Source: Candidatus Woesearchaeota archaeon (lineage in GTDB: Archaea; Nanobdellota; Nanobdellia; Woesearchaeales; DSVV01). From it: a stretch of 64,000 nt of DNA. Position numbers and translations under genes: made by a program. The notes beneath the pieces are model-generated. The model was not told the DNA's origin, did no database searches, and saw only the letters and a list, made by a program, of their open reading frames with translations. The stretch lies in assembly GCA_038884615.1 (NCBI GenBank), contig JAWABL010000004.1, positions 4,479 through 68,478 of the forward strand. The letters run 5' to 3'. Every line of letters begins with the position of its first letter. Position 1 is the stretch's first letter. Shown here one piece after another: positions 10,471 through 48,231 of the stretch.

Positions 10471-10560
10471 ATTTTCAGCACATAATTTTTTTCAGCAAAT
10501 ATACTCTCTAAACTATATCATCTGCTCAGTAGTATTTATAAATATTTTTCTTTTATCTTG

Positions 10561-10725: not shown

Positions 10726-10783
10726 GTATTTAAAAAACTAAATCTAAATATCAACACAGATAAGTATTAGTGTTGGTTATACA

Positions 10784-12376: not shown

Positions 12377-12507
12377 TATCTCTCTTTTTTTGTTTATTTT
12401 AATTTTTTCCTCTATTTTTATTGAGTGTATAAAATATATAATTCCTAAAATAATTCCTAGATTCTTGCTGTTATACTTATGTTACACACCCGTTATGCAT
12501 ATATTAA

Positions 12508-16295: not shown

Positions 16296-16391
16296 AAAGG
16301 CGACTTTAAACCTTCTTTCTTTAAAAATGTTTCTATGCGTTATATCTCTATGCTATATCTGCTGCTCTTTGCTATTATATCTCCTACGCAC

Positions 16392-17330
16392 TCACTCAAT
16401 GAGTTCTTCAACCTCATACCTTGCAAGATGTCCACTCTCGTTGTCCAGCCTAAACCAGTTGTATGTGTTTTTTATAAGATAGTGTTCTGGGCTTTCCTTG
16501 CTGAAATATATATAATCTATACAAGACTTGTTTAGTGTGTTTATATCATTTGCCTCGAGCTCAATAAGGTTTACAAGGCTTTCAATGCCGTACGGAGAGC
16601 TATTTAGGTCTCCTTTTAGCCTCATAAGATAACTCGGTGCACTTTGTGAGTCTATATATAATGAATTGTCAAGATGGTATAGAAGGTTTGTTGTGTCGTT
16701 ATTTGGTCCGACAAAATCGGTTATGCTGCTTTTTTCAATTGTATTTATCACTCTTCCAAATGTATTTACAGTGTATAGTGGGTCTTCAAACCCCACTATA
16801 CTGAGCGATGTGTTTATTCTCTTGTTTCGTGACCAGTAGGCAAGTCCGTTTCTGTCCTGTATATACTCTGTAACATCTAGCGATATTGTTAGTGTCCAAG
16901 GATCAGAATGGCTTATACTTATGTCATTAAGCGTGTAGTTGAAATATATCCCTGTCTTTACAGCCTCAACCCTTATTCTTTCAACCCATATACTTAGCTG
17001 TGTATCATTCATAACACTCATGTATTCGCCGTTTATTGTTCCGTTTATTATAATCTCCTCAATAACATCATCTGTGTCATAAAGGAACTCGCCTTTTGAT
17101 GTTATATACTGCTGGATTGCTAGCAGAGACCTAAATGACGCGATATAAACACCCCTCTCAATGTCCTTTTCTAGGTCATCAACAAAATGGTCTAGCGTTG
17201 TAACTCTGCTGTCAATTACAATTGCTTTGTCTCTTAAGCGCGTCTGATAATCTAGCGAGATGTACAAAAAGAGTAGAACTAAAAATACCATCGCTGTTAA
17301 TGTAAAGAAAAACCCTTTTTTCACTGCCAT
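16392..17330 (-). CDS. Pilin-like protein (class III signal peptide MAVKKGFFF-hydrophobic)
   Basis: The N-terminus MAVKKGFFFTLTAMVFLVLLFLYISL is nearly identical to the N-terminus of the giant downstream protein. The mature part is rich in N-x-S/T sequons. It overlaps the next gene by 10 nt. Confidence 0.5.
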   Translation of the reverse strand: MAVKKGFFFTLTAMVFLVLLFLYISLDYQTRLRDKAIVIDSRVTTLDHFVDDLEKDIERGVYIASFRSLLAIQQYITSKGEFLYDTDDVIEEIIINGTINGEYMSVMNDTQLSIWVERIRVEAVKTGIYFNYTLNDISISHSDPWTLTISLDVTEYIQDRNGLAYWSRNKRINTSLSIVGFEDPLYTVNTFGRVINTIEKSSITDFVGPNNDTTNLLYHLDNSLYIDSQSAPSYLMRLKGDLNSSPYGIESLVNLIELEANDINTLNKSCIDYIYFSKESPEHYLIKNTYNWFRLDNESGHLARYEVEELIE

Positions 17331-20300: not shown

Positions 20301-22228
20301 TTATCATTGTTTGGCCTGTTGAAATTATCATACATAAACTCCGCTATTCTAGAGCTCTCTGTTGCGACAGAGCCAGTAGACTGCCAGCTGTTAAGACTCG
20401 GTCCTGTAAAGTTCATGTTTTTGATTGGCATTATTGTAATAGCAGTTGGAAGTCCGAAAGTGTTTCCCTTAGAATATATGCCTGAATTGAAATCAACTGG
20501 TGCAATTTTATCGGATGGGTGAGGCCAGAGATACGCCTGAATAGTGTTACCAGCGTAGTAGTCTGCAGGAAAGCCTATACCAAACTTTAGTGTTCCTTCC
20601 TGCCAGAGGCTATCGTCATAGTCAACAGCAGTCCATCCGGGAGGTTCTGATACCTGAAACTCACTTGTATATCTCCACTTATTGTGCAATAGGTCAGTCA
20701 CATTGTTGCCCATAAGTATATTGACTCCTTGATAGACCCCGCATGAAATACAAGTTCCTCCGTTCGCATAATATTGCTTAATCTGGTCTAAAATAAGTGT
20801 GCTGTTTTTTGTTAAACTTAATATATCTCTAATGCCTGAATAATAACTTACAAGCCCTATCCTGTTTCCAGATGTGTTTACAACAATCTGCCTATTAAAA
20901 TCATCAAGTATGCATTTTAGCAAGCTCAGCCTTTGTGTGCTGTTAAGTTTTAGTAGAGGGTCTTTGCAAAACCTTTCAACCCCTGTATTTGTATCGTCAA
21001 ACCTCCAATTCATGCTTCCGCTTACATCGTTCACTACTACAACGTCTCCATTTCCTCTATCACTTATAGTTCTTACAAAAGAAAGGTTTTCAAACCCAAG
21101 CCTCACAGGGACTGTCTGGTTGCTGATTGCTTTATAATCAATCAAGCTACTAAGGTTGCTGTTATTAATATATACACTAATAGTTGTATTGGAGTAGTTG
21201 TCTGAGTAGATCAGCGTATTCCCTATAAGAAGTGAAAGTGTGCTGTTTGAGTTGTTTGAATGGTTTGCAAAATAATGAAGGTATACCTCCATGCTGTTCA
21301 GATCGCCTGGGATGTCAATAGCAGAATAAAAATTTATAATTCCTGAAATTCCAGAGAAAAGGAACACTTCTGAGTCAATATCTTTATAATATATTTGTTT
21401 GGTGTAATAGTCAATCCTTATGAACCCTCCGGCGACATATGCAGATTCTATCTCTTCTGGAAATACGAGTGTAAACTCTGTAGTTATGTCCTTGTTTATA
21501 AGGTTCTTGCATGATGTTATGTCAAAAGCGTCGGCCTCCATATTTCTCCCGCTGACTACGAAATCTCCGCAATGTGTTCCATTAATATAAAGGCTAAAAT
21601 TATTTCCCGCGGAAATCTCCATATAAACCTTTGTTATATTGGCATCGCTTGGGGTTTGCTGTATAATCTTTGTAATGTTTCCTTGTCCTTCAAACCCTCC
21701 AAAATATGCATAAATAGACCTTGCAAGTTGCTCCTCACCTCCTGTAAGAAATATTCTTGCAGAGGTTCCCTTTATTGGTCTTGATTTTTGTATTCCTGTT
21801 ATCATGCTTTTATAGACTGCAAGGTCCTTTTGTCTAGAAATATTTCTAGAATACATAGTTTGATTGCCGTAAATGGCCATCATTCCGTAAGTCCTTGGCA
21901 CAAGTTGAGCAGTAATGTTTTGTATAAGCACCTCTGCAATTTCTGTATTGTTTTTTGCCCATAGTATGCCAATTTCTTCTATAACTGTATTATCATACTC
22001 CGTTTCAGGGATGGTTCCATTGAATATAAGCTCTTTTAGGATAGGATTGTCAAACTCTATTACCTTGGTTGTTGAGAGGATACGGATTATATCCATCGGT
22101 GCGTAGTTTATCTGTGCGGTCGGCTGCTTATACGCGTAGATGGCGGAAAACAGAAGGAACCCTCCTCCTATGAGCATAAGAGCAAGAAGTGCATCAGTGC
22201 TGAAGAAAAATCCCCTTTTCACCGCCAT
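17321..22228 (-). CDS. Giant (1635 aa) pilin-like surface adhesin with VWA and LamG/concanavalin-like domains, heavily sequon-decorated
   Basis: The N-terminus MAVKRGFFFSTDALLALMLIGGGFLLF is class-III-signal-like. A VWA MIDAS motif is present (VVVVNDVSGSM ... and a second KALVLMSDGEANVC). A LamG-like segment is present (CIGLLFRYNDNQNYYRFRIDNDNFGG). More than 100 N-x-S/T sequons are visible by eye. Confidence 0.6.
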   Translation of the reverse strand: MAVKRGFFFSTDALLALMLIGGGFLLFSAIYAYKQPTAQINYAPMDIIRILSTTKVIEFDNPILKELIFNGTIPETEYDNTVIEEIGILWAKNNTEIAEVLIQNITAQLVPRTYGMMAIYGNQTMYSRNISRQKDLAVYKSMITGIQKSRPIKGTSARIFLTGGEEQLARSIYAYFGGFEGQGNITKIIQQTPSDANITKVYMEISAGNNFSLYINGTHCGDFVVSGRNMEADAFDITSCKNLINKDITTEFTLVFPEEIESAYVAGGFIRIDYYTKQIYYKDIDSEVFLFSGISGIINFYSAIDIPGDLNSMEVYLHYFANHSNNSNSTLSLLIGNTLIYSDNYSNTTISVYINNSNLSSLIDYKAISNQTVPVRLGFENLSFVRTISDRGNGDVVVVNDVSGSMNWRFDDTNTGVERFCKDPLLKLNSTQRLSLLKCILDDFNRQIVVNTSGNRIGLVSYYSGIRDILSLTKNSTLILDQIKQYYANGGTCISCGVYQGVNILMGNNVTDLLHNKWRYTSEFQVSEPPGWTAVDYDDSLWQEGTLKFGIGFPADYYAGNTIQAYLWPHPSDKIAPVDFNSGIYSKGNTFGLPTAITIMPIKNMNFTGPSLNSWQSTGSVATESSRIAEFMYDNFNRPNNDNIGSNWMEVPNGGNWQIFNNYLVESTNSAPGSRDDGYGPYAYYRNGFNWKDYTVNARIRPNDNDCIGLLFRYNDNQNYYRFRIDNDNFGGLFSRLERIHSGTRTILWSNEGSSSGFSTDNWNNMIIEVTGTNIKIYRGSTLIAQANDNTLANGTVAVYAWAMDDGNYGADFDYINVSTNVFGMTDYFIVDSWVGGIGYVNQTFTSPTSSPNNVSLTLRHSTNDLYFNGTAYLFCNITSPIGETEVWSVNWSANNNTERPKEEIIDITNLITSDTFSYNLLCGAVVSNGTSRTVVAFDDIGVTINYTPSIESTDDGWDWQGGVFGYNGNYTDFYYNATGNLEFVVNGSGSGSNSGAWGIQINITPEMIDMMNSNGGKALLSFNYRWDAADDGSSSVFETSDEVWVKGFFMNRTGSKHYLGTEMSSDDGDAGEEIWSADDPDYEHSGHFVQDITEWITGEGYYYLAIGGKLRRDSSSEIGSFSFDNIQLVFTNTSNNTFYRNKFFVLDATGIDENVYINITSDDGADVYINGNLVDSYTGHVDNRVTQISKALLNEGENIMGIKLYNSDSNGKLQVGLYANATKRQKALVLMSDGEANVCVDDGGMVDNGCDNCAGSGCCPDAIGQLSVPCPDLPEIDQAEFSDGDEDAAEQLINITCYYQKKYNLSIYTVAFGSVGTGGRKTLNLTALCDPEYNSTNNTHYYESDNPSGLSLIYSEIAEKLSNSFSYKVQQIITIVGNFEKSYLYPDSYIMLNYTPYTQPVQYGEVPIFFEYKNPENCTFSVFIPSQVRPIEAAVTSYSGTHWTDLLTINNSMGTFVFYNLSRFSTDYSYMGDPFAIPFSTSYIVRGETNTIKINVGDEPTNTSNCSVNNTFLYTGLINVVNFTLPYSEVKYKAEGCNWTIELEDLTLTNVSVPSSYSGSKKCFYTNSSHDSSGYDSDDSYDVAMHLLLTHLDYNNDGRVFINFHEEDAVIDAKVVRDIPYLWGPTIVEVRVWQ

Positions 22229-23340
22229 GCATACACCACCATTATAATTGGTTGACGGTTATACAACATAACTCTCTGAAGGCTTACAAGGCTGCTTGAG
22301 TTTACCTTACTGAAGTCAAGGCTTGCGTTTATCACTACATCATTAAAATGTTGTTCTACTGCCTCCTCAATATAGTCTTGGTATTCTCCGTATTCCCCAG
22401 AGTAGACTGCGTCAAAACTACTGAAATAGTAGACCTGACCTTTGCCGTAAACCCATTTTGCAATCGTGCTAGTCTCTCCAGATTTTGCTATAGTTTCAAA
22501 ATATTGTGTGCGGTTTCCTAGAACTGTGCTGTTGTGGTTATAGGATATTATGTCATTAGGATTAAAGTCCAGATAGTTGTCGCTGCTTACAACAGTAGAA
22601 TTAAATGTACCTAAATCTCCGGCAATATATGTTACATTAAGGAACTGCCCATCTGTTTGGGAAACATTGCCGGACAAAAAAATAAAGTGTCCTGTTCTAA
22701 CATAGTCCTCAATAATAGAGACCTGTGCAGGGCTGAACCTTGGATTTTCTATCAGTGCTGCGTCAAGCGAATTAATATTTGTAACAAGTTCGTCAGGACT
22801 TGTATACGATACAACATTTATCCCTGTCCTTGCCTCAAGAATAGGCATTTTTGTATGCAACAGGCTTGCTGGCATTGCATAATAGCCAAAAAATTTCTCG
22901 TCAGCATTTGTTTTTACCTCAACAGACCAATGCCCTATATAATACTGGCTTCCGATTTTTCTTAATCTTCCATCGGGGCTTTTGAAGAAAACCGCAAAAT
23001 CGCTTCTTGACCCAAAAAGAAACTTGCTTTTGTAGTAACTGCTGTTTGTGAGGTTTGCAAACCTATCTGCTTTTGATTTGTCAAGCACATAATCGCTTTT
23101 AAAAAGCCCTATCCTACGCACAGTGGTGTTAGTCCAGTCTGGTGGGTATCCTTCTGTCATAAGTCCTCCAGAAATAGACCTTGCGTCGTTATAGACCTCC
23201 TCAATCTTTTTGAGTTTTTGTTCTCTTATATTCGGAATAAAGCTGAATATAAACGCCATTGAAATGCTAAATATCACTATTGCAATTATAAAATCCTGGT
23301 ACCATACCTGACCATGCCTCTTTTTTAGCATTTCATGCAC
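22219..23340 (-). CDS. Pilin-like or secreted protein (373 aa)
   Basis: The N-terminus KKRHGQVWYQDFIIAIVIFSISMAFIFSFI is a basic stretch, then G-Q, then a hydrophobic helix, which is class-III-signal-like. It overlaps the giant gene by 10 nt. Confidence 0.45.
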   Translation of the reverse strand: MHEMLKKRHGQVWYQDFIIAIVIFSISMAFIFSFIPNIREQKLKKIEEVYNDARSISGGLMTEGYPPDWTNTTVRRIGLFKSDYVLDKSKADRFANLTNSSYYKSKFLFGSRSDFAVFFKSPDGRLRKIGSQYYIGHWSVEVKTNADEKFFGYYAMPASLLHTKMPILEARTGINVVSYTSPDELVTNINSLDAALIENPRFSPAQVSIIEDYVRTGHFIFLSGNVSQTDGQFLNVTYIAGDLGTFNSTVVSSDNYLDFNPNDIISYNHNSTVLGNRTQYFETIAKSGETSTIAKWVYGKGQVYYFSSFDAVYSGEYGEYQDYIEEAVEQHFNDVVINASLDFSKVNSSSLVSLQRVMLYNRQPIIMVVYAWR

Positions 23341-23419
23341 GCACTTTTACTGGCAATCTTGTTTTTGCTTTAGCACCCTGCGTATGTTTATTATTTTGCA
23401 TCTAACTGATATTTAGGTC

Positions 23420-23809
23420 TTAAATTACATTTATATAAACAATCCCCCCAAGTTTATCTATCTTGTTTGCTCCTTTGGTTATATTTCCGATCACATCAGG
23501 TACTATAAACTCTCTTTGAATGTTGGCCGATGTAATTATTATTGAACTGTTTTTTTGAAGTGTTATATTATAATACACTCCGTCCTTTTCTTCAGGGAGT
23601 ACAAAGATTCTGGTATAGCCATCGTCTACCATTGTGGCGGTGACTATCTCGTTTTGGACAAATTCACCGATATCGTTTATTGCTTCAAGTCTTTTTTGCT
23701 CGTTTACTTGTGATATCTCCTCAAAAATCAACCCTAATATAAAGATAAATAGCATTGTAGTTATTGATATAAGAATTACAAATTCTGTGGAAATCTGTGC
23801 TTTTCGCAA
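23420..23809 (-). CDS. Type IV pilin-like protein (129 aa)
   Basis: MRKAQISTEFVILISITTMLFIFILGLIF matches the archaeal pilin consensus (K-A-Q...E-F-V plus helix). Confidence 0.6.
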   Translation of the reverse strand: MRKAQISTEFVILISITTMLFIFILGLIFEEISQVNEQKRLEAINDIGEFVQNEIVTATMVDDGYTRIFVLPEEKDGVYYNITLQKNSSIIITSANIQREFIVPDVIGNITKGANKIDKLGGIVYINVI

Positions 23810-24000
23810 TACTCCACCTCCGCTATACTCTAAAATAACTTAAAGTTTATTCGGTTTTTAAGGCGTTCTTCTTTAGTATGGTGTTTTTTGTTAGTATTAT
23901 CCTCTTTGTTAGTTTTATTGTCTTTGTTAGCTTTACTATTTTTTGCTTCAACGACCCTTTCTTTAGTCGTCCAAAAAATAAGTAATCCTTTTAACTATGT

Positions 24001-24414
24001 TTAGTCATCTATTATGACGCCAGTGTCTGTAGCAGTTATGGATATATACCTTATACCTGCATGAGGCGATAAACTTCCTGAAAGATTGACTTGGCTTTGC
24101 TGGGTTATATCAGTAGTCTCTCCTTGCCATTTCATCCTAAAAACAAGTTCCTTTTCTGTTATTATAATTGCATCAATATTTTTTGGCATATAAACCTTAA
24201 GTGTTGTTTTTGAGGGCTCACCTAAGTAGTACACCGTTTCTGCCGAGTCAACTATCTTTCTTGCAAGAAGGTGTGCTTGATTAGCATTTACTCTCATCTC
24301 CACTGCACTTTTTTCAGAGCCGTATATAAAAAGAAGCGGTATCAATGCAAGAAGCGCAAATGAAACTATCACTACATATTCAATAGCAAACTGCGACCTA
24401 ACCCCTTTCATCAT
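24001..24414 (-). CDS. Type IV pilin-like protein (137 aa)
   Basis: MMKGVRSQFAIEYVVIVSFALLALIPLLFIYG matches the QxxxEY class III motif. Confidence 0.6.
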   Translation of the reverse strand: MMKGVRSQFAIEYVVIVSFALLALIPLLFIYGSEKSAVEMRVNANQAHLLARKIVDSAETVYYLGEPSKTTLKVYMPKNIDAIIITEKELVFRMKWQGETTDITQQSQVNLSGSLSPHAGIRYISITATDTGVIIDD

Positions 24415-31285: not shown

Positions 31286-31783
31286 CTATTTTTTTTGTCG
31301 CTTAGTCTCCATCTTTTTTATTATGTCTTTACAGAAGTTTTTGACAATCTCAGGTATCATTTTCCTTTCTCTAGGCATCCTTATCCCTATTTTAGCAATA
31401 ATTTCTGCATTTGGTATCATCTTCTCAGTTTCAGCAAAGCACTTTTTATCCCCTGAGCTGCCCATTGTACAGAACAACGCAACCCTTTTCCTTCCTATAT
31501 CATACTTTGAAAGAAATGTTCGCAACGCAGGCACCATAGTCCATCCCCAGACAGGCTGGCCGATTATGATTGTATCGTATTTTTCTGGCTTTTTCTTTAT
31601 CGACTCTATTCTTGTCATTTTTTTGCGGATAGCGTCTCTCCCTGCGCGGAGGTAACCAAGAACTCCTTCTCTGCTAGTCTTGTCTACTATTTCTTCAATA
31701 TCCGCATTTAGCTCTTTTGCAATCATTTCTGCAACAAGCCTTGTGTTTCCAGTTCTTGAATAATAAATAACAAGTGTTTGCAT
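31286..31783 (-). CDS. Flavodoxin-like protein
   Basis: MQTLVIYYSRTGNTRLVAEMIAKEL is the flavodoxin FMN-binding loop. GQPVWGWTMVPALRTFL also fits. The track start is a TTG 12 nt upstream. The ATG at 31781-31783 has a GAGGG SD. Confidence 0.8.
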   Translation of the reverse strand: MQTLVIYYSRTGNTRLVAEMIAKELNADIEEIVDKTSREGVLGYLRAGRDAIRKKMTRIESIKKKPEKYDTIIIGQPVWGWTMVPALRTFLSKYDIGRKRVALFCTMGSSGDKKCFAETEKMIPNAEIIAKIGIRMPRERKMIPEIVKNFCKDIIKKMETKRQKK

Positions 31784-31932
31784 ACTAGCCCTCAAATCGT
31801 TTTTATGCCTTTTTCGCGTATAAATCTATGCTCTTATTTCTCTTCTTTCGCGCAACATTACTATAACTTTCTGCCTAAGCTACTGATTATAGTTATTTAT
31901 AATATAATAATCATTGATATTTATAATCTTTT

Positions 31933-34831: not shown

Positions 34832-35890
34832 ATGGCACTTCACTTCTATCCTATGCAAATTCAAGAACAGCTAAAAAAGGCATTTTTAGGCAGAGAAGAT
34901 GTACTAACTGATATTATTGGTCAGGATTCTGCAAAAAAAGAACTTATGAGTGCGCTTCTCATGGGCAGGCATATTATAATCTTTGGGAAGCCGGGGATTG
35001 GAAAGACCACTCTTGCAAAAAATGTGGCAAGGCTGCTTCCAGAGCTTGAGCTTTCAGACTGCGATTACAATTGTCTCCCTGAAAAGCCCCTCTGTCCTAG
35101 GTGTATCGCAGGAAAAAGCAGGACGCGGAAGGTTCCGGGAGTAAAGAGGTTTGTTCGTGTGCAGGGTAGCCCTGACCTCACAGCAGAGGATATTCTTGGG
35201 GACATTGATCCGATAAAAGCGATGAAATTTGGTCCATTAAGTATCGAGGCATTCACGCCAGGCAAAATACTTAAGGCAAATAACGGAATTTTGTTTTTTG
35301 ACGAGCTCAACAGATGCCCCGAAAAACTGCAAAATGCTCTGCTTCAGGTGCTTGAGGAAGGAAAAATTACAATTGGAGGATATGATTTCGATTTTCCTGT
35401 GAACTTTCTTTTTATAGGCACGATGAACCCCCAAGATACAAGCACAGAGGAACTTTCAGAAGTTCTCCTTGACAGGTTTGATGTTGTCTACATGAGTTAT
35501 CCTGAGAGCGACAAGATTGAAATACAAGTTGTAAAGACAAATGGAAAACAAGTGTGTGAGATTTCTGAGGGGATGCTTGCACTTTTGGTGCGGTTTATCC
35601 GCTCGCTTCGTGAAGATAGCAAGCTCGAGCTTGTTCCAAGCGTTAGGGCTACTATAGGGCTTTATGAGCGTTCTCAAGCAAATGCGTTGCTTCAAGGAAG
35701 AAAAAAAGTGCAGTTTGAAGACATAAAGGACGCAGTGATTAGCGTTGTGGCGCACAGAATTCGCCTTAAGCCTAGCGCAAAGTTTCTTGACGAACCAACA
35801 AGCTACTTAAAAAAAGAATTTGAAGACTTTATAAACAATAATTATCCTGAAGCACAGCAACTGGAGCAGGACCGCGGTGATTATCGGTAG
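34832..35890 (+). CDS. MoxR/ChlI-family AAA+ ATPase with a Cys-rich insertion
   Basis: Walker A is IIFGKPGIGKTT. Walker B is GILFFDELNRCPEKLQNALLQVLEEG. Sensor 2 also fits. An inserted CDYNCLPEKPLCPRC carries 4 Cys, a possible Zn ribbon. Confidence 0.7.
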   Translation: MALHFYPMQIQEQLKKAFLGREDVLTDIIGQDSAKKELMSALLMGRHIIIFGKPGIGKTTLAKNVARLLPELELSDCDYNCLPEKPLCPRCIAGKSRTRKVPGVKRFVRVQGSPDLTAEDILGDIDPIKAMKFGPLSIEAFTPGKILKANNGILFFDELNRCPEKLQNALLQVLEEGKITIGGYDFDFPVNFLFIGTMNPQDTSTEELSEVLLDRFDVVYMSYPESDKIEIQVVKTNGKQVCEISEGMLALLVRFIRSLREDSKLELVPSVRATIGLYERSQANALLQGRKKVQFEDIKDAVISVVAHRIRLKPSAKFLDEPTSYLKKEFEDFINNNYPEAQQLEQDRGDYR

Positions 35891-37076
35891 CGTAAGCAGT
35901 CTGCATAATGGGCATATGGGTGTAAAGTGCTCTTCAAACATAAAAGAGTTCCCGGGTAGCTTGCATTTTCAGGCGCTTGATGCAAAACTTATGCATTCTG
36001 TAATTGAAAATGATAAGGGAGTTATTGATGAGGGAAAGCTGATTAGCGAAGCCATCAACTTAGGGGTCGGCTCTTTTATGCCGGAACTCATGTTTGAGAG
36101 CATCGTCAATAATTTTGCGGTTGCAAAAAACCTTTATGGCGAAAGGCTTATAAGGGAGATATGTGGTTGCGAGCCGGACTACATTGAAAAAAACGCATCA
36201 GTCCCAGAATTTCGGCGTTGGCTAAAAAAGCGCATTCAAGACAAGCTTGATGCCATGAGGTTCTCTAAGCTGCTTGAAAGAGACTATTCAATAAGCGAGA
36301 AAGGCATTGAGCTTGCTGCTCTTGTTATGTATGTAGATGAGCTTGAAAAAATAGTGCCTACAGGAATGAAAGGAAGAAGGGAGCATAGAAAATCCTATAT
36401 TTATGGTGAGAAGCAGAATGTCAGGAACTATACTAAACAATCAAGGTATAGGGACATTGCGTTGAGAAATTCCATAAAGACAGCCTTGCGTAGAGGGCAT
36501 CGTTCTCTTGAGAAAGAAGATTTAAGGGTATTTGAGCGGAGCTCAAAAGGTATGAACCATATAATATATGCTCTTGATGCATCAGGCAGCATGAAGGGCA
36601 AAAAAATTGATAGCTGCAAAAGGGCGGGAGTTGCTCTTGTTTACAAGGCACTGTCTGAAAAGGACATGGTTGGGCTTATTGTCTTTGGCAAGGAGGTTTC
36701 AAAGGCAATCCCTCCGACAAATGATTTCGCCATGCTTGTGAAAGAAATATCTTCAATACATGCAGCACACGAAACCAATCTCTCTGCAACAATAAAAAAA
36801 TCTATGGAGTTGTTTTCAGACAGCAAAGTGACAAGACATCTTATTCTTATAACTGATGTTTTGCCTACTGTCGGGACAGACCCTTCTACAGAGACGCTTG
36901 AAGCTGTTTCGGAGGCAAGAAGCGCCGGCATCACCATCTCTGTTGTTGGCATAAACCTTGATGACAAGGGAAAGAATCTAGGAGAAAAAATAGTTGAGAT
37001 TGGAAAAGGTAGGTTTTATATTGCTGGGACAGACAATCTTGATAAAGTTGTGCTTGAAGACTACTACTCAATTTAA
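35877..37076 (+). CDS. VWA-domain protein, partner of the MoxR/ChlI-like ATPase
   Basis: MIDAS motif IIYALDASGSMKGKKID...LITDVLPTVG. It overlaps the upstream ATPase gene by 14 nt. Confidence 0.7.
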   Translation: MIIGSVSSLHNGHMGVKCSSNIKEFPGSLHFQALDAKLMHSVIENDKGVIDEGKLISEAINLGVGSFMPELMFESIVNNFAVAKNLYGERLIREICGCEPDYIEKNASVPEFRRWLKKRIQDKLDAMRFSKLLERDYSISEKGIELAALVMYVDELEKIVPTGMKGRREHRKSYIYGEKQNVRNYTKQSRYRDIALRNSIKTALRRGHRSLEKEDLRVFERSSKGMNHIIYALDASGSMKGKKIDSCKRAGVALVYKALSEKDMVGLIVFGKEVSKAIPPTNDFAMLVKEISSIHAAHETNLSATIKKSMELFSDSKVTRHLILITDVLPTVGTDPSTETLEAVSEARSAGITISVVGINLDDKGKNLGEKIVEIGKGRFYIAGTDNLDKVVLEDYYSI

Positions 37077-39307: not shown

Positions 39308-39802
39308 ATGCTTGTAACGGATATTGTTGAGCAGGTTGAAAAAAGCCAGACCTATACTTCATGGGAGGGAAGAGAAAACTTCTATTTGGTGCATCTTTTT
39401 TATATGACCGGCCATAATTGGCAGGTTGGTTATTATAATAAAGGTACAGGGAGGATAGTAACATTTGAGGCAAACGGCGGGGTAAAAAGGCTTGAGGAGT
39501 CAGATGTTTTTCAGGACAGTCCTCTACCTCTTTCTAGATTAAATGTTGAATCTGTTAAGATAGATTATAAGGATGCAGTGGAAAAAGCAAAGATTGTAGC
39601 AGAGAAACATTTTCCACATGAGCATATTGATAAGGAGATTGCGGTGCTTCAGGAAACAAAGCAAGGTGTCTTGTATAATATCACTTTTTTAACACGAAGC
39701 TTTAAAATGCTTAACATAAAGATTGATGCGGACAAAAGTGAAGTGCTTCATTATGAATTGCACTCCCTTATGGATATGACAAGAAAAGAGGATATTTTAT
39801 AA
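39308..39802 (+). CDS. Hypothetical protein
   Basis: 164-aa ORF in an AT-rich context. No recognised motif. Confidence 0.4.
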   Translation: MLVTDIVEQVEKSQTYTSWEGRENFYLVHLFYMTGHNWQVGYYNKGTGRIVTFEANGGVKRLEESDVFQDSPLPLSRLNVESVKIDYKDAVEKAKIVAEKHFPHEHIDKEIAVLQETKQGVLYNITFLTRSFKMLNIKIDADKSEVLHYELHSLMDMTRKEDIL

Positions 39803-39988: not shown

Positions 39989-40417
39989 GTGAGGGTACGA
40001 ATAAAGCTTTTGCATAAGGAAGCAAAGATACCTCAATATGCGCATAAAGGGGATTCTGGCGTTGATTTATACTCGATTGAAAATATTGTTATAAAACATG
40101 GAGAATGGCAGCTTGTTAGAACAGGTGTGTCTATAGAGATTCCGTCTGGTTATGAAGCCCAGATTAGGCCAAGAAGTGGGCTAGCGCTTAAACATGGAAT
40201 AAGCGTTCTTAACACACCAGGGACTATTGATTCTGGTTACAGGGGAGAAATAGGTGTGATTCTTGTAAATCATTCGCGGCACGATTTTCTTGTTGAAAAG
40301 CATACTAAGATAGCTCAAATGGTTTTTTGTAAAGTTGAGCGAGTGTCCTTTCAGCAGGTTGATAAGCTTAAAGAAACTACAAGAAATAAGGGAGGCTTTG
40401 GAAGCACAGGTAAATAG
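39989..40417 (+). CDS. dut: dUTP diphosphatase (dUTPase)
   Basis: dUTPase motifs: AHKGDSGVDLY, IRPRSGLALKHGI, GTIDSGYRGEIGVIL and GGFGSTG. It has a GTG start preceded by a GGGGGTGAT SD. Confidence 0.85.
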   Translation: MRVRIKLLHKEAKIPQYAHKGDSGVDLYSIENIVIKHGEWQLVRTGVSIEIPSGYEAQIRPRSGLALKHGISVLNTPGTIDSGYRGEIGVILVNHSRHDFLVEKHTKIAQMVFCKVERVSFQQVDKLKETTRNKGGFGSTGK

Positions 40418-40644: not shown

Positions 40645-41388
40645 TTGCAGGCGTATATTGCAGAACTATCTGATATATCAGAGGAAAATCTTCATGGTAG
40701 ACTTTCTCTTGCAGTCTATTTTGCAGGCTGCGATTTTCACTGTGTTGGTTGCAACACACCTGCACTTAGAGAGTTTAAAAGCGTCTATATGAAAGAACTT
40801 AGAGAGGTAAAAAACCACATCAAGATGAGAATGCCTACAGCAGTAACTTTTACAGGTGGAGAGCCCTGTCTTCAGAAAGAAGCGCTTTTTGATCTGGCAA
40901 AGTTCTGCCGTAGACTTGGTATAAAAACTGCAATAGAAACAAATGGCTCAAGACCTGATGTTCTCCGTGCTCTCCTTTTAATGGAGCTTATTGATTTTGT
41001 TGCGCTTGACATAAAGGCTCCATTGACAAAAGATATATTCCAAAGGGTTTCTCGTTGCAACACCTTCTTCAAAGGAACAGATTCTGTTATTGAAGACATA
41101 ACATGCAGCATTGATGTTCTTAAGGAGTTTCAAGCAAAAAATCCCAAGCTTGATATAGAGTTTCGCACTACGATTATCCCAGGAAACATCTATAGAAAGG
41201 AGCACATTCTTGAAATAGCCGATAAGATTAGTGGGTTTTATAGCAGGTACAGACTTCAGCAGTACAGGCCTGAGAATGTTGCAGATAAGAATATGAAAAA
41301 CATAAATTCGCCAAGCAAGGAGTTTTTAAAAAATCTTGCAAATGCAATCAGAAAACAGTACCCTGACATGAGAGTGGTTGTTTCATGA
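40645..41388 (+). CDS. Radical SAM activating enzyme (NrdG/PflA/QueE-like)
   Basis: Cx3Cx2C (AGCDFHCVGC) lies near the N-terminus. TFTGGEPCLQ matches the SAM-binding GGE motif. It has a TTG start with an AGGGGGT SD. Confidence 0.7.
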   Translation: MQAYIAELSDISEENLHGRLSLAVYFAGCDFHCVGCNTPALREFKSVYMKELREVKNHIKMRMPTAVTFTGGEPCLQKEALFDLAKFCRRLGIKTAIETNGSRPDVLRALLLMELIDFVALDIKAPLTKDIFQRVSRCNTFFKGTDSVIEDITCSIDVLKEFQAKNPKLDIEFRTTIIPGNIYRKEHILEIADKISGFYSRYRLQQYRPENVADKNMKNINSPSKEFLKNLANAIRKQYPDMRVVVS

Positions 41389-41633: not shown

Positions 41634-42362
41634 TCATTGTCCTAAAAATTCCCTAAAAATCTCAATGCTTTTTCTTTTTGTATCCTCAACAGAGTCAGGA
41701 GGATTTGTATCAAGATACACTACCTTTGTACCTCGCTGCTCAAAAAGTCTCTTTAGCCACTCGCTTTCGTATCTCTCTTCTATCTTTCTTTGGAAAATAA
41801 GGTTCTCAAATATGGCATAGTCCTTCTTCTCCCTTAGCTCTAACCTTTTTATAACAACCTCAGGCTGAACCTTGGTTATTATTAATAAATCTGGTGGATA
41901 CTGAAGCGCAAGCCTATTGCCTGGTAGCGACATTACTGTTGAAAGGTCAATCTTTTCATGCTGTACTGGCTGATAGACAAGTGAGGTTACAACGCCTCTT
42001 TCCTGAACAACTATCATGCCCTTTTTTAAAATAGGTATAATCAATTTCGTATATAATATCTCTCTATCTAGTGCAAACGCATGCGCAGTTGAGAGGGCAG
42101 AATAACTCCTTCCATGACTGTTTACTCTTATTATCTCATCTCTTATAACCTTTCCAATAAGCCCATAAGTCGGCTCTGACGAGATTATCGCATCATACTC
42201 TTTAACTTCCTCACTTTCAGGGATGTTATTACAGGTTTTCCAGTACTCATTCAAATCAAAGATACGCTTTCCTATACTTTCAAGATACTCTTTAATTGCT
42301 GTAACACACACGCCCTTGCCTGAGCCGTCAAGCCCATCAACGATAATAAGTTTTCCTTTCAC
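41634..42362 (-). CDS. P-loop nucleotide kinase (thymidylate kinase / deoxynucleoside kinase-like)
   Basis: KLIIVDGLDGSGKG is the P-loop of the dTMP-kinase type (I-x-G-x-D-G-S-GK). ERG..TSLVYQ is lid-like. It lies near dut, thyA and folA. Confidence 0.5.
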   Translation of the reverse strand: MKGKLIIVDGLDGSGKGVCVTAIKEYLESIGKRIFDLNEYWKTCNNIPESEEVKEYDAIISSEPTYGLIGKVIRDEIIRVNSHGRSYSALSTAHAFALDREILYTKLIIPILKKGMIVVQERGVVTSLVYQPVQHEKIDLSTVMSLPGNRLALQYPPDLLIITKVQPEVVIKRLELREKKDYAIFENLIFQRKIEERYESEWLKRLFEQRGTKVVYLDTNPPDSVEDTKRKSIEIFREFLGQ

Positions 42363-44653: not shown

Positions 44654-45163
44654 CTAATCAGGTGTTTTTGCAGGACTAGATGCTAGATGCTTTATTCTTT
44701 CGTATTTTAAAAAACTGTATCCGTTATGTTTTTCTTCATTTACACGGCGCCATTCTTTCCAGTCAATATGAGGGAACACGACGTCTCCAATTGGGCTTGT
44801 ATGTACTCGCGTAATTTCAAGTGTATTAGCATCTTTAAGAGCCGTCCTGTAAACAGAGGCGCCTCCGCACACGAAAACCTTTTCTCTATTTTTTAAATAT
44901 GAGATGGCACTCTCCCATGATTCAAACACTTTTGCACCTTTCGCACGATAATTGCGGTTAGTTGTTAGAACTATATTCTCTCTTCCAGGGAGAGGTCTAG
45001 CATTGTCCGGCAGGGACTCGTAGGTAAGCCTGCCCATCACACATGCATGTCCCATTGTAAGCTTTTTGAAGTGCATGAAATCTTCTTTTATATGCCATGG
45101 AATTTTTCCATCCTTCCCTATAACACCGTTCTCAGCAACTGCAGCAATTATGATGATTTCCAT
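44654..45163 (-). CDS. folA: Dihydrofolate reductase
   Basis: MEIIIIAAVAENGVIGKDGKIPWHIKEDFMHFKKLT has the DHFR signature (I-G-x-x-x-x-x-P-W ... F-x-x-x-T). VCGGASVY is the C-terminal GG motif. Confidence 0.85.
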   Translation of the reverse strand: MEIIIIAAVAENGVIGKDGKIPWHIKEDFMHFKKLTMGHACVMGRLTYESLPDNARPLPGRENIVLTTNRNYRAKGAKVFESWESAISYLKNREKVFVCGGASVYRTALKDANTLEITRVHTSPIGDVVFPHIDWKEWRRVNEEKHNGYSFLKYERIKHLASSPAKTPD

Positions 45164-45177
45164 TGTAGCACGGCTCT

Positions 45178-46044
45178 TTAAACTGAAATCTCAAAATGTA
45201 TTTTAGGATGGCAGCGATAGTCTAATATTTCAGAGTCAGTATACTCCCATTCAAATATTGACTTAAATCTCTCTGTTTTTATTTTTGGCAATGGAAACGG
45301 TTCTCTGCCAAGCTGTTCTCTTAGTCCTTGTATGTGGTTAAGATAGATATGTGTGTCGCCGAGAAAACCAACAAGCCTGCCTTCCTTTAATCCAGACTCT
45401 TTTGCAAGAAGATGCAGTAGCAGCCCATATCCGGCGATATTGAACGGTAGCCCAAGTGCAACATCCACGGATCTCTGGCTCCACATAAGACTTAGCTTAT
45501 CTTCTATTACAACAACCTGAAAACAAAAATGGCATGGAGGAAGAGCCATTCTTGGCAGGTCAGTAGGGTTCCAGGCGCTTACAATCATTCGTCTGTCTGA
45601 AGGATTCTTCTTTAGAGTTTCAACGACACAACGTAGTTGGTCAATGCCGTTGCTTTGTGGTGGTTTATCGTATGAAACATATTTCGCGCCGAAATTGCGC
45701 CACTGCCAACCGTATATCGGCCCAAGCTCTATCTCCTCCATCATCTTTTTTTTTGTTTCCTCATCATGCCCATATTTTACTTTCTCAGGGCTGCACCACT
45801 CGTCCCAGATATGGTTGTTTCTTTCCTGCAACCATTTCTTGTTTGTTATGCCCTTTATGAAAAACTCCATTTCAGACGCAATAAGTCTGAACGGCATTTT
45901 TTTGGTAGTAAGGAGCGGAAACCCCTCAGGCATGTTATGTTCAAACATCACGCCAGCAATGGCAAGTGTTCCTGTTCCTGTCCTATCATCCTTTCTTTGC
46001 CCTTGCTCCAGAATTTTTCTGACAATATCCAAATAGCCTTTCAT
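45178..46044 (-). CDS. thyA: Thymidylate synthase (ThyA, bacterial/eukaryotic type)
   Basis: DRTGTGT is present. The catalytic Cys lies in ALPPCHFCFQVVV, which matches the ThyA active-site pattern. Length is 288 aa. Confidence 0.9.
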   Translation of the reverse strand: MKGYLDIVRKILEQGQRKDDRTGTGTLAIAGVMFEHNMPEGFPLLTTKKMPFRLIASEMEFFIKGITNKKWLQERNNHIWDEWCSPEKVKYGHDEETKKKMMEEIELGPIYGWQWRNFGAKYVSYDKPPQSNGIDQLRCVVETLKKNPSDRRMIVSAWNPTDLPRMALPPCHFCFQVVVIEDKLSLMWSQRSVDVALGLPFNIAGYGLLLHLLAKESGLKEGRLVGFLGDTHIYLNHIQGLREQLGREPFPLPKIKTERFKSIFEWEYTDSEILDYRCHPKIHFEISV

Positions 46045-46068: not shown

Positions 46069-47439
46069 TTAAATAGTTTGCTGGATGTTGCTTACATAAA
46101 GATGGCCTGAAAAATCTGTTATTACAATCGGGCCGTTTGAAACTCCAATTCGTTGTGCAACAATCTTCTGTAGGCTGGCAAGAGCATATATATTTGGAAC
46201 AAACGCGCCCTCTCCTTTAATGAGCCTTCCATCATGCGTGACTGTCGCAATATGATGACTTCTGTAAAGTGCGTGCATTTCAAGTTTGTTCTCTCTTACA
46301 ACAAACCACAGTATGTCAAGGCAGGGGCTATTCTCGCGCTCAATATCATCTTGGCTGTCCCATAGAGATATTGTAGCCCTTCTAGTGTTTGGTTTAGAGA
46401 TAAGAAGTTTAACCACTTTTTCAACCTGGTTGCCCCATCTTTTGAAAATCCTGTTGTGATAGGTATAGACAAAATCGTCCAAAATATTCTCTCCACCGTT
46501 CAAGAACTCATCGGTATATTTTTTTAAATACTCCTCAGAAAATCCGTCGGGTATGCTTTTCAGCGGCTCAAGTATTGTTATAGATATGCTTCTGCATTCT
46601 ATAATCATTATGCCGCGCTGATCCCTAAGCATTGTTCCATTTTTGTATATAAACGCCGCAGCCTGAGTAAGTGCATCTGTCAGTGTCTCTGCTTGAACCG
46701 ATTGGCCGATAGTCGTTGCGAGTGCTCTCTCCTCAAATATTATATTTTCAGCTGCTTGTGCAAGCTCAAGCAACATTGGTTCGTCAAATCTGCAACCGCC
46801 ATCGTAAATCTTTTTACAGGATGCTTTACAGAGTGTATTTGTTATAAATTCAAACCCCTCAGGTGTTTCAATAGCATTTTGTGGTTCTTGAATGCACCCT
46901 CGAACAAGATGCTCTATCCTGTCAAAGTCACCAAAACTGAGATCTCTGCCAATAATCAAGTCGCATTGCTTTCTTATTCTTTCAAGTGCTTCAATTGGTA
47001 CACCTTCAAATTTTGGATTTGCCGCTTTTGTGTTCAGGATTATTCCATTGCTGTTTGTTCCATTCTTCCAGAATTTTTCAAGGGCATCTACAAGCATATG
47101 GCCATTGTCTTTTTTGTCAAACACAAGCAAGATAATTTTGTTTATGTTTGGGTTTGAGAGCAGGTTGGCAAACACATATTTTGCACCGTTGGTTGTTCTC
47201 CAAAAACCAGTCAGTGCGCAGTAGTTTGAAATTTTCAAAAAGAACTGTCTTATTTCTTCAGGCGGCAAATCGCTTTTCCATGTATACACAAATGCGACAG
47301 CCACATTTGATGTAGGGTTTCCTGATACGACATCTTTGGAATTGAAGAGCTGGACTTTTGGAATCTCATTTTGTTCATATACTATTTTTTTAATATCCCT
47401 TATAAGAAAAGGATCATACCCAATTTTAATCGTTTTCAT
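46069..47439 (-). CDS. Fusion protein: unknown N-terminal domain (about 235 aa) plus a compact thymidylate-synthase-like (ThyA-fold) C-terminal domain
   Basis: C-terminal residues align to ThyA landmarks. The matches are VEKVVKLLISKPNTRRATISLWD, SPCLDILWFVV (nucleophile Cys), LYRSHH, PNIYALASL and ITDFSGHLY. The N-terminal half has no P-loop or other recognisable motif. Confidence 0.6.
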   Translation of the reverse strand: MKTIKIGYDPFLIRDIKKIVYEQNEIPKVQLFNSKDVVSGNPTSNVAVAFVYTWKSDLPPEEIRQFFLKISNYCALTGFWRTTNGAKYVFANLLSNPNINKIILLVFDKKDNGHMLVDALEKFWKNGTNSNGIILNTKAANPKFEGVPIEALERIRKQCDLIIGRDLSFGDFDRIEHLVRGCIQEPQNAIETPEGFEFITNTLCKASCKKIYDGGCRFDEPMLLELAQAAENIIFEERALATTIGQSVQAETLTDALTQAAAFIYKNGTMLRDQRGIMIIECRSISITILEPLKSIPDGFSEEYLKKYTDEFLNGGENILDDFVYTYHNRIFKRWGNQVEKVVKLLISKPNTRRATISLWDSQDDIERENSPCLDILWFVVRENKLEMHALYRSHHIATVTHDGRLIKGEGAFVPNIYALASLQKIVAQRIGVSNGPIVITDFSGHLYVSNIQQTI

Positions 47440-47652: not shown

Positions 47653-48231
47653 ATGATTGTAGGTTTGACAGGGCCAAGCGGTTCAGGCAAGGGGAGTGTT
47701 GCAGACTATCTTATTGAAAAGGGATTTGTCTACCTGTCGCTGTCAAACTTTTTGCGTGAAGAGGCTAAAAAAATTGGAGTGCCTGATACAAGACTTGCGT
47801 TACAGGACCTTGGAAATAGGCTTAGGCGTAGAAACGGGCCAGGGTTTCTTGCAGAACTTGCTGTAAAAAAGATTTTATCCGATAAAAATTATAAACATAA
47901 AAACTATGTTGTAGACAGCATAAGGAACCCTGAGGAAGTGCAGTGCTTAAGACGACTTTGTGACTTTTTTTTAATATCTGTTGATGCTCCAGTTGAAGTT
48001 AGATACAAAAGAATCATTGCACGAGGAAGAGAAGAGAATGCCCCTACATTAACAAGATTTATAGAGATTGAAAAGAGAGAGAACGAAGAAGGGCCGGAGA
48101 GGATACAGGTTTTAAAGTGTATGGAGCTGGCAGATTTCTTTATAAATAACAATAGAACTCTTGCAGACCTTAAACTGAAAACAAAAAAGACCCTAAAAAA
48201 TATAACTGAAAGACTCACTCAATCTTTATGA
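47653..48231 (+). CDS. P-loop kinase (dephospho-CoA kinase / dNMP kinase-like)
   Basis: MIVGLTGPSGSGKGSVADYL is a Walker A of the CoaE/dNMP-kinase type. Length 192 aa. It lies adjacent to the ThyA-like fusion and thyA-folA. Confidence 0.5.
   Translation: MIVGLTGPSGSGKGSVADYLIEKGFVYLSLSNFLREEAKKIGVPDTRLALQDLGNRLRRRNGPGFLAELAVKKILSDKNYKHKNYVVDSIRNPEEVQCLRRLCDFFLISVDAPVEVRYKRIIARGREENAPTLTRFIEIEKRENEEGPERIQVLKCMELADFFINNNRTLADLKLKTKKTLKNITERLTQSL

Follow-up and report, generated by a model that had tools for sequence, protein, structure and literature searches.

A gene on the reverse strand of contig JAWABL010000004.1 from a Candidatus Woesearchaeota archaeon (assembly GCA_038884615.1) encodes an N-terminal MtrA-type domain fused to a C-terminal compact ThyA-fold domain. 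The 64,000 nucleotides of this contig that were analysed are referred to as the window. Both domains can be identified, their key residues are conserved among relatives, and the two domains are repeatedly fused or adjacent in gene clusters of deoxynucleoside triphosphate (dNTP) metabolism. From the ThyA-type active site, the conserved corrinoid site and the repeated coupling of the two in four gene arrangements, we infer that the fusion may be a cobamide-dependent thymidylate synthase, a two-domain enzyme of thymidylate metabolism. Taken as a whole, this function is put forward tentatively, as possible but short of probable. The protein would then bind a corrinoid, use dUMP as its substrate and form dTMP as its product by methyl-transfer chemistry. 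The specific step proposed below, from methyl-Co(III) to dUMP, is the more doubtful part.

The open reading frame (ORF) starts with ATG, ends with TAA and encodes 456 residues. Its product is 100% identical to an NCBI protein from a Candidatus Woesearchaeota metagenome-assembled genome (MAG), which the NCBI annotation pipeline named 'thymidylate synthase'. Members of the family carry the JGI label 'thymidylate synthase/tetrahydromethanopterin S-methyltransferase subunit A', and the Pfam domain pair can be seen in precomputed database entries. The initial annotation, made from the sequence of the window, had called this a novel fusion. It is a genuine and conserved two-domain fusion, but it was already present in databases under these names. 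A homologue search with the fusion protein gave 138 clusters. Among the 120 clusters listed, almost all are 440-470 residues long and contain both Pfam domains, and the named clusters among the matches listed come from Woesearchaeota or Nanoarchaeota MAGs. Therefore, the gene is not a chance ORF.

The N-terminal half had been described as lacking any recognisable motif. However, residues 37-191 match the Pfam family MtrA (PF04208; 52.1 bits, E = 8e-14, gathering cutoff 25), and residues 70-194 match PDB 5LAA, a complex of a cytoplasmic MtrA with cobalamin (E = 3e-14). The structures 5LAA, 5L8X and 8Q3V are matched at E-values from 3e-14 to 2e-10. The models NF002126, TIGR01111 and PRK14053 are matched as well, TIGR01111 at 51.3 bits, far under its cutoff of 249. 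In the cobalamin site of 5LAA, His84 coordinates cobalt as its lower axial ligand, Glu54 hydrogen-bonds to His84, and Asn55 and residue 82 bind propionamides; residue 82 is called Asn in the paper, while the 5LAA chain itself reads Gln (PMC4915002). The nucleotide tail is contacted by Asp17, Lys52, Thr53, Gly57, and Asn64, its base is sandwiched between Tyr18 and Val61, and the loop from Thr53 to Gly57 grips the tail and one propionamide (PMC4915002). These contacts map in the fusion to Asp36, Val37, Arg81, Thr82, Thr83, Asn84, Gly85, Val89, Asn92, Asn112, and His114.

Conservation was examined in an alignment of 117 full-length family members, which share just 45-60% identity overall. Thr82, Asn84, Gly85, Asn92, Asn112, and His114 are each present in 117/117 sequences, and Asp36 in 115/117. 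Because the contact residues are invariant while overall identity is so low, this is more consistent with a working cofactor site than with a vestige. The N-terminal domain is predicted to be a corrinoid carrier that holds a cobamide in the base-off/His-on state through His114. Some features of MtrA differ. The position of Tyr18 is Val in the fusion, and the GAIPF/YxEN meander is not kept: the family has A(P/A)NPKFE(Q/G), which is AANPKFEG here, so that Pro142, Glu145, and part of the pattern remain. In MtrA, a DPGAF stretch after helix alpha4 folds back onto the sheet. A conserved LYDDGxRF (residues 211-218) appears to correspond to it, as read off a partial alignment with 5LAA.

The C-terminal domain aligns end to end with the methanogen-type ThyA model TIGR03283 (residues 248-453 against positions 3-199 of 201) and scores 129.4 bits, below the trusted cutoff of 174.55. 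It scores only 32 bits with the bacterial-type model TIGR03284, and 35.3 bits with PF00303 (E = 9e-9, cutoff 24.3). It is 31.8% identical to the methanogen-type ThyA of Methanobacterium virus PhiF1. The catalytic residues were aligned against E. coli and L. casei ThyA. The ThyA landmarks named in the initial annotation (the Cys, the Arg pair, YRSHH, and SGHLY) are all present and align with the catalytic residues of these two enzymes. Arg353 and Arg354 correspond to E. coli R126 and R127 (TRRATISLW), Cys373 to C146 (SPCLD), Arg393 and Ser394 to R166 and S167 (YRSHH), Asn416 to N177 (VPNIY), His446 and Tyr448 to H207 and Y209 (SGHLY), and Tyr325 to Y94, while Arg275 corresponds to R21 with an offset of one alignment column. 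The counterpart of E. coli Glu58 depends on the alignment, being Tyr308 in some and Glu311 in others. Arg275, Arg353, Arg354, Cys373, Arg393, Asn416, and His446 are each found in 117/117 sequences, Ser394 and Tyr325 in 116/117 each, and Tyr448 in 111/117. In E. coli ThyA, R21, R126, R127, and R166 bind the phosphate, N177 specifies uracil, and H207 and Y209 are ligands of the 3'-OH. From the conservation of its residues, the domain is predicted to bind dUMP and to activate its C5 through Michael addition of Cys373 at C6.

Since the catalytic Cys, Arg pair, Arg-Ser, Asn, and His are conserved in the 117 relatives, the fusion is not a pseudoenzyme. Loss of the Cys or Arg residues in orthologs, which had been named as a sign of a pseudoenzyme, was not seen. 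We therefore rejected this identity, and together with an annotation or assembly artefact it seems extremely improbable. Independent assemblies of 28 GTDB genomes, one of them a closed chromosome of 1.84 Mb, show the same architecture, and an AlphaFold2 model of the fusion, built from 40 homologues, has high confidence (pLDDT, the predicted local distance difference test, 88.7; pTM 0.86). The observations that speak for a non-catalytic or artefactual protein are two aberrant relatives, one with a degenerate ThyA half and one with the N-terminal domain only, joined to unrelated sequence.

The first of these relatives is a 381-residue protein (L024:9986-11131, plus strand), in which the MtrA half is kept (DNSH retains the His) and the ThyA half is without the Arg pair and the Cys. 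Its gene adjoins a Mur-ligase-like gene (FolC-like by sequence), tmk, a radical-SAM activase gene, and a dUTPase gene, and a canonical thyA-folA pair is 7 kb away. This suggests that the N-terminal domain can persist alone. Since the ThyA half has decayed while the genome keeps thyA-folA, redundancy with ThyA is suggested. The second (L026:10001-11008, plus strand) is 53% identical to residues 1-231 of the fusion and then continues in unrelated sequence. The genes on both sides of it are typically bacterial, its 103-kb contig is binned as Desulfobacteraceae, and the ORF is either an assembly chimera or a transferred fragment.

On the cofactor side, the C-terminal domain departs from classical ThyA. 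It is without the helix segment that bears E. coli Ile79, Trp80, and Trp83 (an alignment gap), and the protein ends 8 residues past Tyr448, compared with 55 more residues in E. coli ThyA, so that the C-terminal lid of about 50 residues is missing. The position of Asp169 is an invariant His (His396), and that of His147 is Leu. Thus, the classical determinants of folate binding, the conservation of which the initial annotation had proposed to check, are absent or altered. Directly after His396 there is a 12-residue insertion with an invariant Gly-Glu-Gly-Ala, in the loop that borders the ThyA active site on its cofactor side. In the alignments, neither the other fusion clades nor unfused compact ThyAs have the insertion. 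Foldseek with the AlphaFold2 model retrieved hundreds of ThyA chains (probability 1.0, E about 1e-11), and the top target-normalised TM-scores were those of the dCMP hydroxylase AfhB of phage HY126 (9IQU, TMt 0.76), MilA, and T4 dCMP hydroxymethylase. In a rough neighbour-joining tree (30 sequences, 196 columns), all compact ThyA domains, fused or not, were separated from E. coli ThyA and the canonical ThyA of the window with 100% bootstrap support. The window's own clade also had 100% support, and its nearest sequences, P0228, P0231, and the PhiF1 virus ThyA, were weakly supported, as was the internal branching of this tree, in which PhiF1 is the sole genuine methanogen-associated sequence. 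It had been anticipated that the domain might cluster squarely with archaeal ThyA and the N-terminal domain prove to be a known regulatory one. The ThyA domain does cluster in the compact archaeal radiation, but the N-terminal domain is of a cofactor-carrying rather than a known regulatory type.

The pairing of MtrA with a compact ThyA is not restricted to this clade. When 1.84 billion representatives were searched exhaustively by HMMER with the N-terminal domain, just 84 matches were obtained, and several of these are other MtrA-ThyA fusions with far more canonical MtrA halves (E = 1e-39 to 1e-42). A profile search added about 30 clusters. Three fusions score above the TIGR03283 trusted cutoff (P0240, 210.6 bits; P0334, 223.6 bits; P0423, 185.2 bits), and thus bona fide methanogen-type ThyAs occur fused to MtrA. 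One fusion adjoins mtd and mch, the genes of two enzymes of the methylene-tetrahydromethanopterin (methylene-H4MPT) pathway, and another adjoins the genes of the anaerobic ribonucleotide reductase NrdD and a dCTP deaminase. No canonical thyA was found within 7-8 kb of the fusion in several loci of other clades. In an Aenigmatarchaeota MAG, the two domains are encoded in a split operon of MtrA-DUF4346, a compact ThyA that keeps the Cys, and a dCTP deaminase, and this operon is adjoined by a P-loop kinase gene whose product is 41% identical to that of the window. In a Paceibacteria MAG of the candidate phyla radiation (CPR; GCA_028710765.1, L039:4856-8301), genes for a DUF4430 protein and a DUF6580 membrane protein are followed by a triple fusion of dCTP deaminase, MtrA, and PterinBD-DUF4346 and by a compact ThyA of 257 residues. 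There is a hint here of a docking module common to pterin-binding and corrinoid proteins. The vertebrate transcobalamin B12 binders carry DUF4430 as their C-terminal domain (PMC4350170). Neither the DUF4430 protein nor the DUF6580 protein had a sequence match in the PDB or a homologue in the Woesearchaeota loci or the window. The pairing thus recurs independently, fused, split, or differently ordered, in DPANN, other archaea, and CPR bacteria, inside dNTP gene clusters.

Across all fusion clades, Cys373, Arg393, Thr82, Gly85, Asn92, and the NPN motif are invariant, and His114 is kept in 10 of 12 representatives. The MtrA-like domain is not always tied to ThyA, since the stand-alone MtrA-like genes of Bathyarchaeia (P0347, P0394) and the bacterial MtrA-DUF4346 genes (P0426, P0425) have no ThyA or dNTP context. 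In other proteins the MtrA-like domain is joined to 4Fe-4S ferredoxin or FeS domains, which is what one would expect of corrinoid proteins activated by redox chemistry. We also looked for a viral origin. Foldseek against BFVD returned ordinary viral ThyA-fold proteins only, and three IMG/VR scans with fusion queries returned no fusion. In tblastn searches of phage GenBank records, there were matches to the C-terminal domain only and no two-domain match; the best was the PhiF1 ThyA, the neighbours of which include no MtrA gene. A 522-residue MtrA-ThyA fusion (P0335; L030/L031:8001-9569) lies amid about 25 small ORFs, mostly without a Pfam match, together with a resolvase, a PD-(D/E)XK protein, and an SNF2-type helicase. 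This region looks like a virus or mobile element, and the P0335 fusion was not found in the IMG/VR scan.

In the proposed mechanism, the cobamide, not free folate, would deliver the one-carbon unit. Cys373 would add to C6 of dUMP to give the C5 enolate, and the enolate of the covalently bound dUMP would attack methyl-Co(III) held on the MtrA domain. The products would be dTMP and Co(I), with no pterin oxidised and no dihydropterin made, and Co(I) would be re-methylated from a methyl-pterin or another donor via a partner. In SAM-dependent m5U and m5C methyltransferases, a C5 nucleophile activated by Cys in the same way reacts with an electrophilic methyl group, and TsrM moves a methyl group from methylcobalamin onto a carbon nucleophile. 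The enzyme would be a 'core' thymidylate synthase, comparable to the core methionine synthases that work independently of folate, and it would make up, together with the folate-dependent ThyA-FolA next to it, a pair of B12-dependent and B12-independent isozymes like MetH and MetE. By extension, compact archaeal-type ThyAs in general could be cobamide-dependent thymidylate synthases that receive the methyl group from an MtrA-type protein, whether fused, neighbouring or, in methanogens, MtrA itself or its cytoplasmic paralogues. This wider proposal is conceivable but rather unlikely.

The coordinates of the gene, its domains and its neighbours are given in Table 1. The canonical thyA, which had been noted immediately downstream, begins 24 bp after the fusion gene and scores 320 bits with PF00303. 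It is followed after 14 bp by folA, the final gene of what looks like a fusion-thyA-folA operon. The dTTP-centred neighbourhood described in the initial annotation was also recovered in full: besides dihydrofolate reductase (DHFR), there are a P-loop kinase gene, separated from the fusion gene by an AT-rich spacer of 213 bp, and the genes for dTMP kinase, dUTPase, and a radical-SAM activase 4-7 kb away. The activase probably serves an anaerobic ribonucleotide reductase, as an NrdG-type protein would. Among NCBIfam models, the P-loop kinase matches NF041025 best, in the N-terminal part of that model (E = 3e-20), and PRK08356 next.

Table 1. Location of the fusion gene, its domains and key codons, and neighbouring genes in the window
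Feature	Position	Strand	Basis
MtrA-like/compact-ThyA fusion gene, 456 aa	46069..47439 (stop codon included)	-	ORF list
N-terminal MtrA-type cobamide-binding Rossmann domain (aa 1-225), predicted	46765..47439	-	PF04208, 5LAA
Thr82-Thr83-Asn84-Gly85 codons, equivalent to MtrA loop Thr53-Glu54-Asn55-(Leu56)-Gly57	47185..47196	-	alignment with 5LAA; codons verified
His114 codon, equivalent to cobalt axial ligand His84 of MtrA	47098..47100	-	GH motif aligned with 5LAA; 117/117 His; codon verified
Linker between domains (aa 226-245), low-confidence	46705..46764	-	pLDDT <50 for aa 237-244; length and sequence vary across the family
C-terminal compact (methanogen-type) ThyA-fold domain (aa 246-456)	46072..46704	-	TIGR03283, PF00303, Foldseek
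Cys373 codon, catalytic nucleophile (E. coli Cys146)	46321..46323	-	alignments; 117/117 Cys; codon verified
Clade-specific 12-residue insertion between Arg166 and Asn177 equivalents	46204..46251	-	aa 397-412 (IATVTHDGRLIKGEGA), few flanking residues included
Canonical bacterial-type ThyA	45178..46044	-	PF00303 319.8 bits; TIGR03284 307 bits
Dihydrofolate reductase FolA	44654..45163	-	PF00186 E 2e-53
P-loop nucleotide-kinase-like gene, divergent from fusion	47653..48231	+	AAA_18/AAA_17
dTMP kinase Tmk	41634..42362	-	TIGR00041 85.3 bits, cutoff 83.25
dUTPase, supplier of dUMP	39989..40417	+	PF00692 E 4e-34
Radical-SAM activase	40645..41388	+	PF04055 and Fer4_12

A scan of one genome per GTDB species gave the 28 Woesearchaeota loci, and neighbours were counted after clustering of all genes within 10 kb of the fusion. 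The commonest neighbour is a tmk-like kinase gene, often directly downstream (16/28 loci), followed by a cluster of P-loop kinase and/or dCMP deaminase genes, often in divergent orientation to the fusion gene (15/28); the P-loop kinase itself had a tblastn match in 11 of the 28. A canonical thyA is near the fusion in 8 loci, a dUTPase gene in 7, and serine hydroxymethyltransferase (SHMT) in 6. A Mur-ligase-family gene read as FolC-like occurs in 4, and the radical-SAM activase and dUTPase genes recur together in 5. The synteny of the fusion with folA in relatives, which the initial annotation had proposed to check, is seen in 6 of the 28 loci. In locus L001, the order is dCMP deaminase and kinase, divergent from fusion, thyA, folA, and SHMT, with the FolC-like gene and tmk further on. 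With these neighbours, the gene is embedded in thymidylate metabolism. NF041025 is the 'anti-phage dCTP deaminase' model, and the window kinase matches its N-terminal kinase-like part. The kinase and deaminase pairing of this defence protein recurs here as housekeeping neighbours, with the kinase ortholog in L001 adjoining a stand-alone dCMP deaminase.

Several observations weigh against a cobamide-dependent thymidylate synthase. The position of Glu54 is Thr83 in 117/117 family members, so the His84-Glu54 hydrogen-bond relay is not kept; Glu54 is replaced in every fused form, while the split forms L039 and L043 keep TEN. In two distant fusions, Tyr replaces His114. A gene for a methyl-pterin:corrinoid methyltransferase, of the MtrH or dihydropteroate synthase (DHPS)-like kind, was found neither in the window nor within 10 kb of the fusion in the 28 Woesearchaeota loci, and the same holds for B12 uptake or salvage genes. 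DPANN archaea are, to our knowledge, not known to make cobamides. The fusion lies among the genes of a complete folate thymidylate cycle (ThyA, FolA, SHMT, FolC-like), which could equally mean that it uses folate. Archaeal cell extracts form dTMP from formaldehyde and tetrahydropterin, the classical route, according to work cited in PMC9931769. Our literature search found no paper that describes or tests the fusion. Beside these points, there were no mtr genes in the window regions scanned, and neither a cobalamin riboswitch nor any other Rfam family was detected in the window, the CPR operon, or the Aenigmatarchaeota operon. The literature on MtrA in DPANN, DUF4346, and 'dCMP hydroxylase' gave nothing relevant.

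Some of these observations would be expected if the fusion were an ordinary archaeal-type thymidylate synthase, for which methylene-tetrahydropterin (folate here, H4MPT in other hosts) is both one-carbon donor and reductant. The MtrA-like domain would then be accessory: a structural or oligomerisation domain, a B12-responsive regulatory module, or a vestige. The NCBI pipeline name, the relatives above the TIGR03283 equivalog cutoff, and the cluster with SHMT, FolA, and the FolC-like gene are consistent with this, as is the relative beside mtd and mch, whose products generate methylene-H4MPT. The extract work, as cited in the review, points the same way, and unfused compact ThyAs exist, such as that of virus PhiF1 without an MtrA gene nearby. 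However, a vestigial or purely structural domain would not hold its cobalamin contacts invariant in 117 sequences at 45-60% identity. The pairing has moreover been re-created or kept in fused, split, and reordered forms across DPANN, other archaea, and CPR bacteria, and the compact ThyA has no Trp80/Trp83 segment or C-terminal lid for folate and has His for Asp169. Classical chemistry is therefore possible, though we think it somewhat unlikely.

The corrinoid might instead be a reductant or electron relay. A pterin would give the methylene group, the cobamide would reduce the exocyclic-methylene intermediate, and tetrahydropterin, not dihydropterin, would be released, as in ThyX but with B12 taking the role of flavin. 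The folate and H4MPT gene context and the fusion of MtrA-like domains elsewhere to 4Fe-4S ferredoxin and FeS domains are in keeping with such a role. Many archaea with a compact ThyA lack FolA, which also counts in its favour. We know of no chemical precedent for cobamide-mediated reduction of an exocyclic-methylene intermediate, and there is no ferredoxin or FeS domain in the fusion protein and none recurring adjacent to it. The folate-binding elements are missing as well, and this role is quite improbable.

A different product has also to be considered, as a complete canonical ThyA-FolA is encoded in the same operon. The fusion could make another pyrimidine nucleotide modified at C5, for example 5-hydroxymethyl-dUMP or some other dUMP derivative, with dTMP left to the canonical ThyA and phosphorylation of the unusual product to the conserved P-loop kinase. 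The cofactor-side changes (Asp169 to His, His147 to Leu, and the 12-residue insertion) would fit, and the best target TM-scores belong to enzymes of other chemistries. The product of the dedicated neighbouring kinase gene is similar to the kinase portion of an anti-phage dCTP deaminase. Nevertheless, the fusion is a conserved chromosomal gene tied to tmk, dut, and dcd, not to DNA-modification or glycosylation genes, and loci of other clades have no canonical thyA within 7-8 kb. The viral-collection scans were empty and phage GenBank records had no two-domain match. The decay of the ThyA half in a genome that keeps canonical ThyA suggests redundancy instead. A modified-dUMP product is thus unlikely. 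The initial annotation had proposed either an alternative cofactor or a modified-pyrimidine reaction. The alternative cofactor is the most attractive reading, and the dCMP-hydroxymethylase type is opposed by Asn416. dCMP enzymes of the ThyA fold have Asp at the N177 position, which gives cytosine specificity. We rejected a dCMP hydroxymethylase because Asn416 is retained (117/117), and a DHFR-TS-like identity because there is no DHFR domain (no PF00186 match in the fusion).

Comparison with known systems places the two halves in different families. Like methanogen-type ThyA (TIGR03283, e.g., ORF59 of PhiF1, MK994522), the C-terminal domain aligns with the full-length model, has a compact architecture of about 200 residues that ends just after His-x-Tyr, and shares the DxR...E, YTYGxR, TRR, PC, RS, and N motifs. 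Unlike it, the fusion has the N-terminal MtrA domain, a score below the cutoff, the invariant His at the Asp169 position, and the GEGA insertion. The cofactor of the methanogen-type family has never been established with a purified enzyme (PMC9931769, PMC9012536). The N-terminal domain shares its sequence family and Rossmann-type domain with MtrA, the corrinoid subunit of methyl-H4MPT:coenzyme M methyltransferase, and with the cytoplasmic homologues 5LAA, 5L8X, and 8Q3V, and it conserves the His84 ligand and the nucleotide-tail and propionamide contacts. In contrast to MtrA, it is followed by the ThyA domain and not by a C-terminal transmembrane anchor, is not part of an mtrEDCBAFGH operon, having no nearby mtr genes, and is joined to a nucleotide-modifying enzyme, not serving a sodium pump.

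In proposed principle only, the fusion resembles MetH and the core methionine synthases MesA and MesB, where a methyl group is brought by a corrinoid domain to the domain that activates the substrate. This is an analogy and not homology of the catalytic domains; the common point is that the catalytic domain has lost its folate-binding parts. In these enzymes the methyl group goes to a zinc-activated thiolate, whereas here C5 of dUMP, a carbon nucleophile, would accept it, and the fusion has an MtrA-type rather than a MetH-type corrinoid domain. Core methionine synthases without the folate-binding domain use methylcobalamin in vitro, and Price et al. predict that MtrA, in the case of MesA, or the corrinoid iron-sulfur protein CoFeSP supplies their methyl groups (PMC7857596).

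The bifunctional DHFR-TS found in protozoa and plants also has an N-terminal alpha/beta cofactor-handling domain and a C-terminal ThyA domain, and Foldseek aligns both halves of the fusion with it loosely (about 520 columns, TM about 0.3). Unlike DHFR-TS, the N-terminal domain is not DHFR, which is a separate gene two downstream, and the ThyA half belongs with the compact archaeal enzymes. T4 dCMP hydroxymethylase, the CMP hydroxymethylase MilA, and the flavin-dependent AfhB (9IQU/9IQC) share the compact ThyA fold and show that it can work with a non-folate cofactor. The fusion differs from them in having Asn at the N177 position, no flavin-related features, and a chromosomal location linked to tmk, dut, and thyA. 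If the hypothesis holds, the enzyme would be like the flavin-dependent ThyX in making dTMP without producing dihydrofolate; the two have no sequence or fold relationship.

Two solutions for thymidylate synthesis are recognised, ThyA, in which folate is one-carbon donor and reductant, and ThyX, which uses folate and flavin. If the cobamide-dependent function is correct, the compact archaeal ThyA with a corrinoid-carrier domain, an architecture visible in databases for which we found no paper, would be a third mechanistic class of thymidylate synthase in DPANN, other archaea, and some CPR bacteria. dTMP would join the short list of products with B12-dependent and B12-independent isozymes, and B12 would act directly in DNA precursor synthesis of DPANN archaea and CPR bacteria with tiny genomes. 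The wider proposal on compact ThyAs would also explain why the one-carbon donor of methanogen ThyA was never pinned down. Recent reviews describe the biochemistry and cofactor of archaeal ThyA as essentially uncharacterised (PMC9931769, PMC9012536), and the fusion is a self-contained protein with which this gap becomes directly testable. The fusion also points to a candidate function for the additional cytoplasmic MtrA copies in methanogens, which are unexplained (PMC4915002). MtrA-family hits (arCOG03221) in DPANN genomes, at least in Woesearchaeota, are probably the N-terminal domain of this nucleotide enzyme. If they were counted as relics of methanogenesis, reconstructions of ancestral states could be misled, and those that place MtrA in the archaeal ancestor (e.g., PMC13473441) might have been influenced by such non-Mtr members.

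About 8 kb upstream of the fusion in one locus (L019:1575-2231, plus strand), there is a member of a second DPANN family of compact 'thymidylate synthases' (P0121-P0220). These are stand-alone proteins of about 215 residues, in about 100 clusters from Woesearchaeota and Pacearchaeota. In 7 aligned members, Gly replaces the catalytic Cys (PG, not PC), and the Arg pair (Lys-Arg in some), Arg-Ser-x-Asp, and His are retained. Since Gly is at the Cys position, this family is unable to use the classical nucleophile, and it might pair with another subunit.

Other genes of the window may also be mentioned. A 164-residue ORF without a Pfam match (39308-39802, plus strand) is kept near the dUTPase and fusion neighbourhood in 9 of the 28 loci. 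A flavodoxin gene (31286-31795, minus strand) and a gene pair for a MoxR/ChlI-type AAA ATPase and a VWA-domain protein (34832-37076, plus strand) are 9-15 kb from the fusion gene, and 4-5 related loci contain a similar pair, an AAA-ATPase-like ORF with a gene for a VWA protein. In E. coli MetH, cobalamin is activated reductively by flavodoxin, and AAA and VWA pairs are known from cobalt chelatases. Finally, a long run of genes on the minus strand (9151-24414), the products of which have hydrophobic N-termini, includes a 1635-residue ORF (17321-22228) and may be a pilus or secretion-type cluster.

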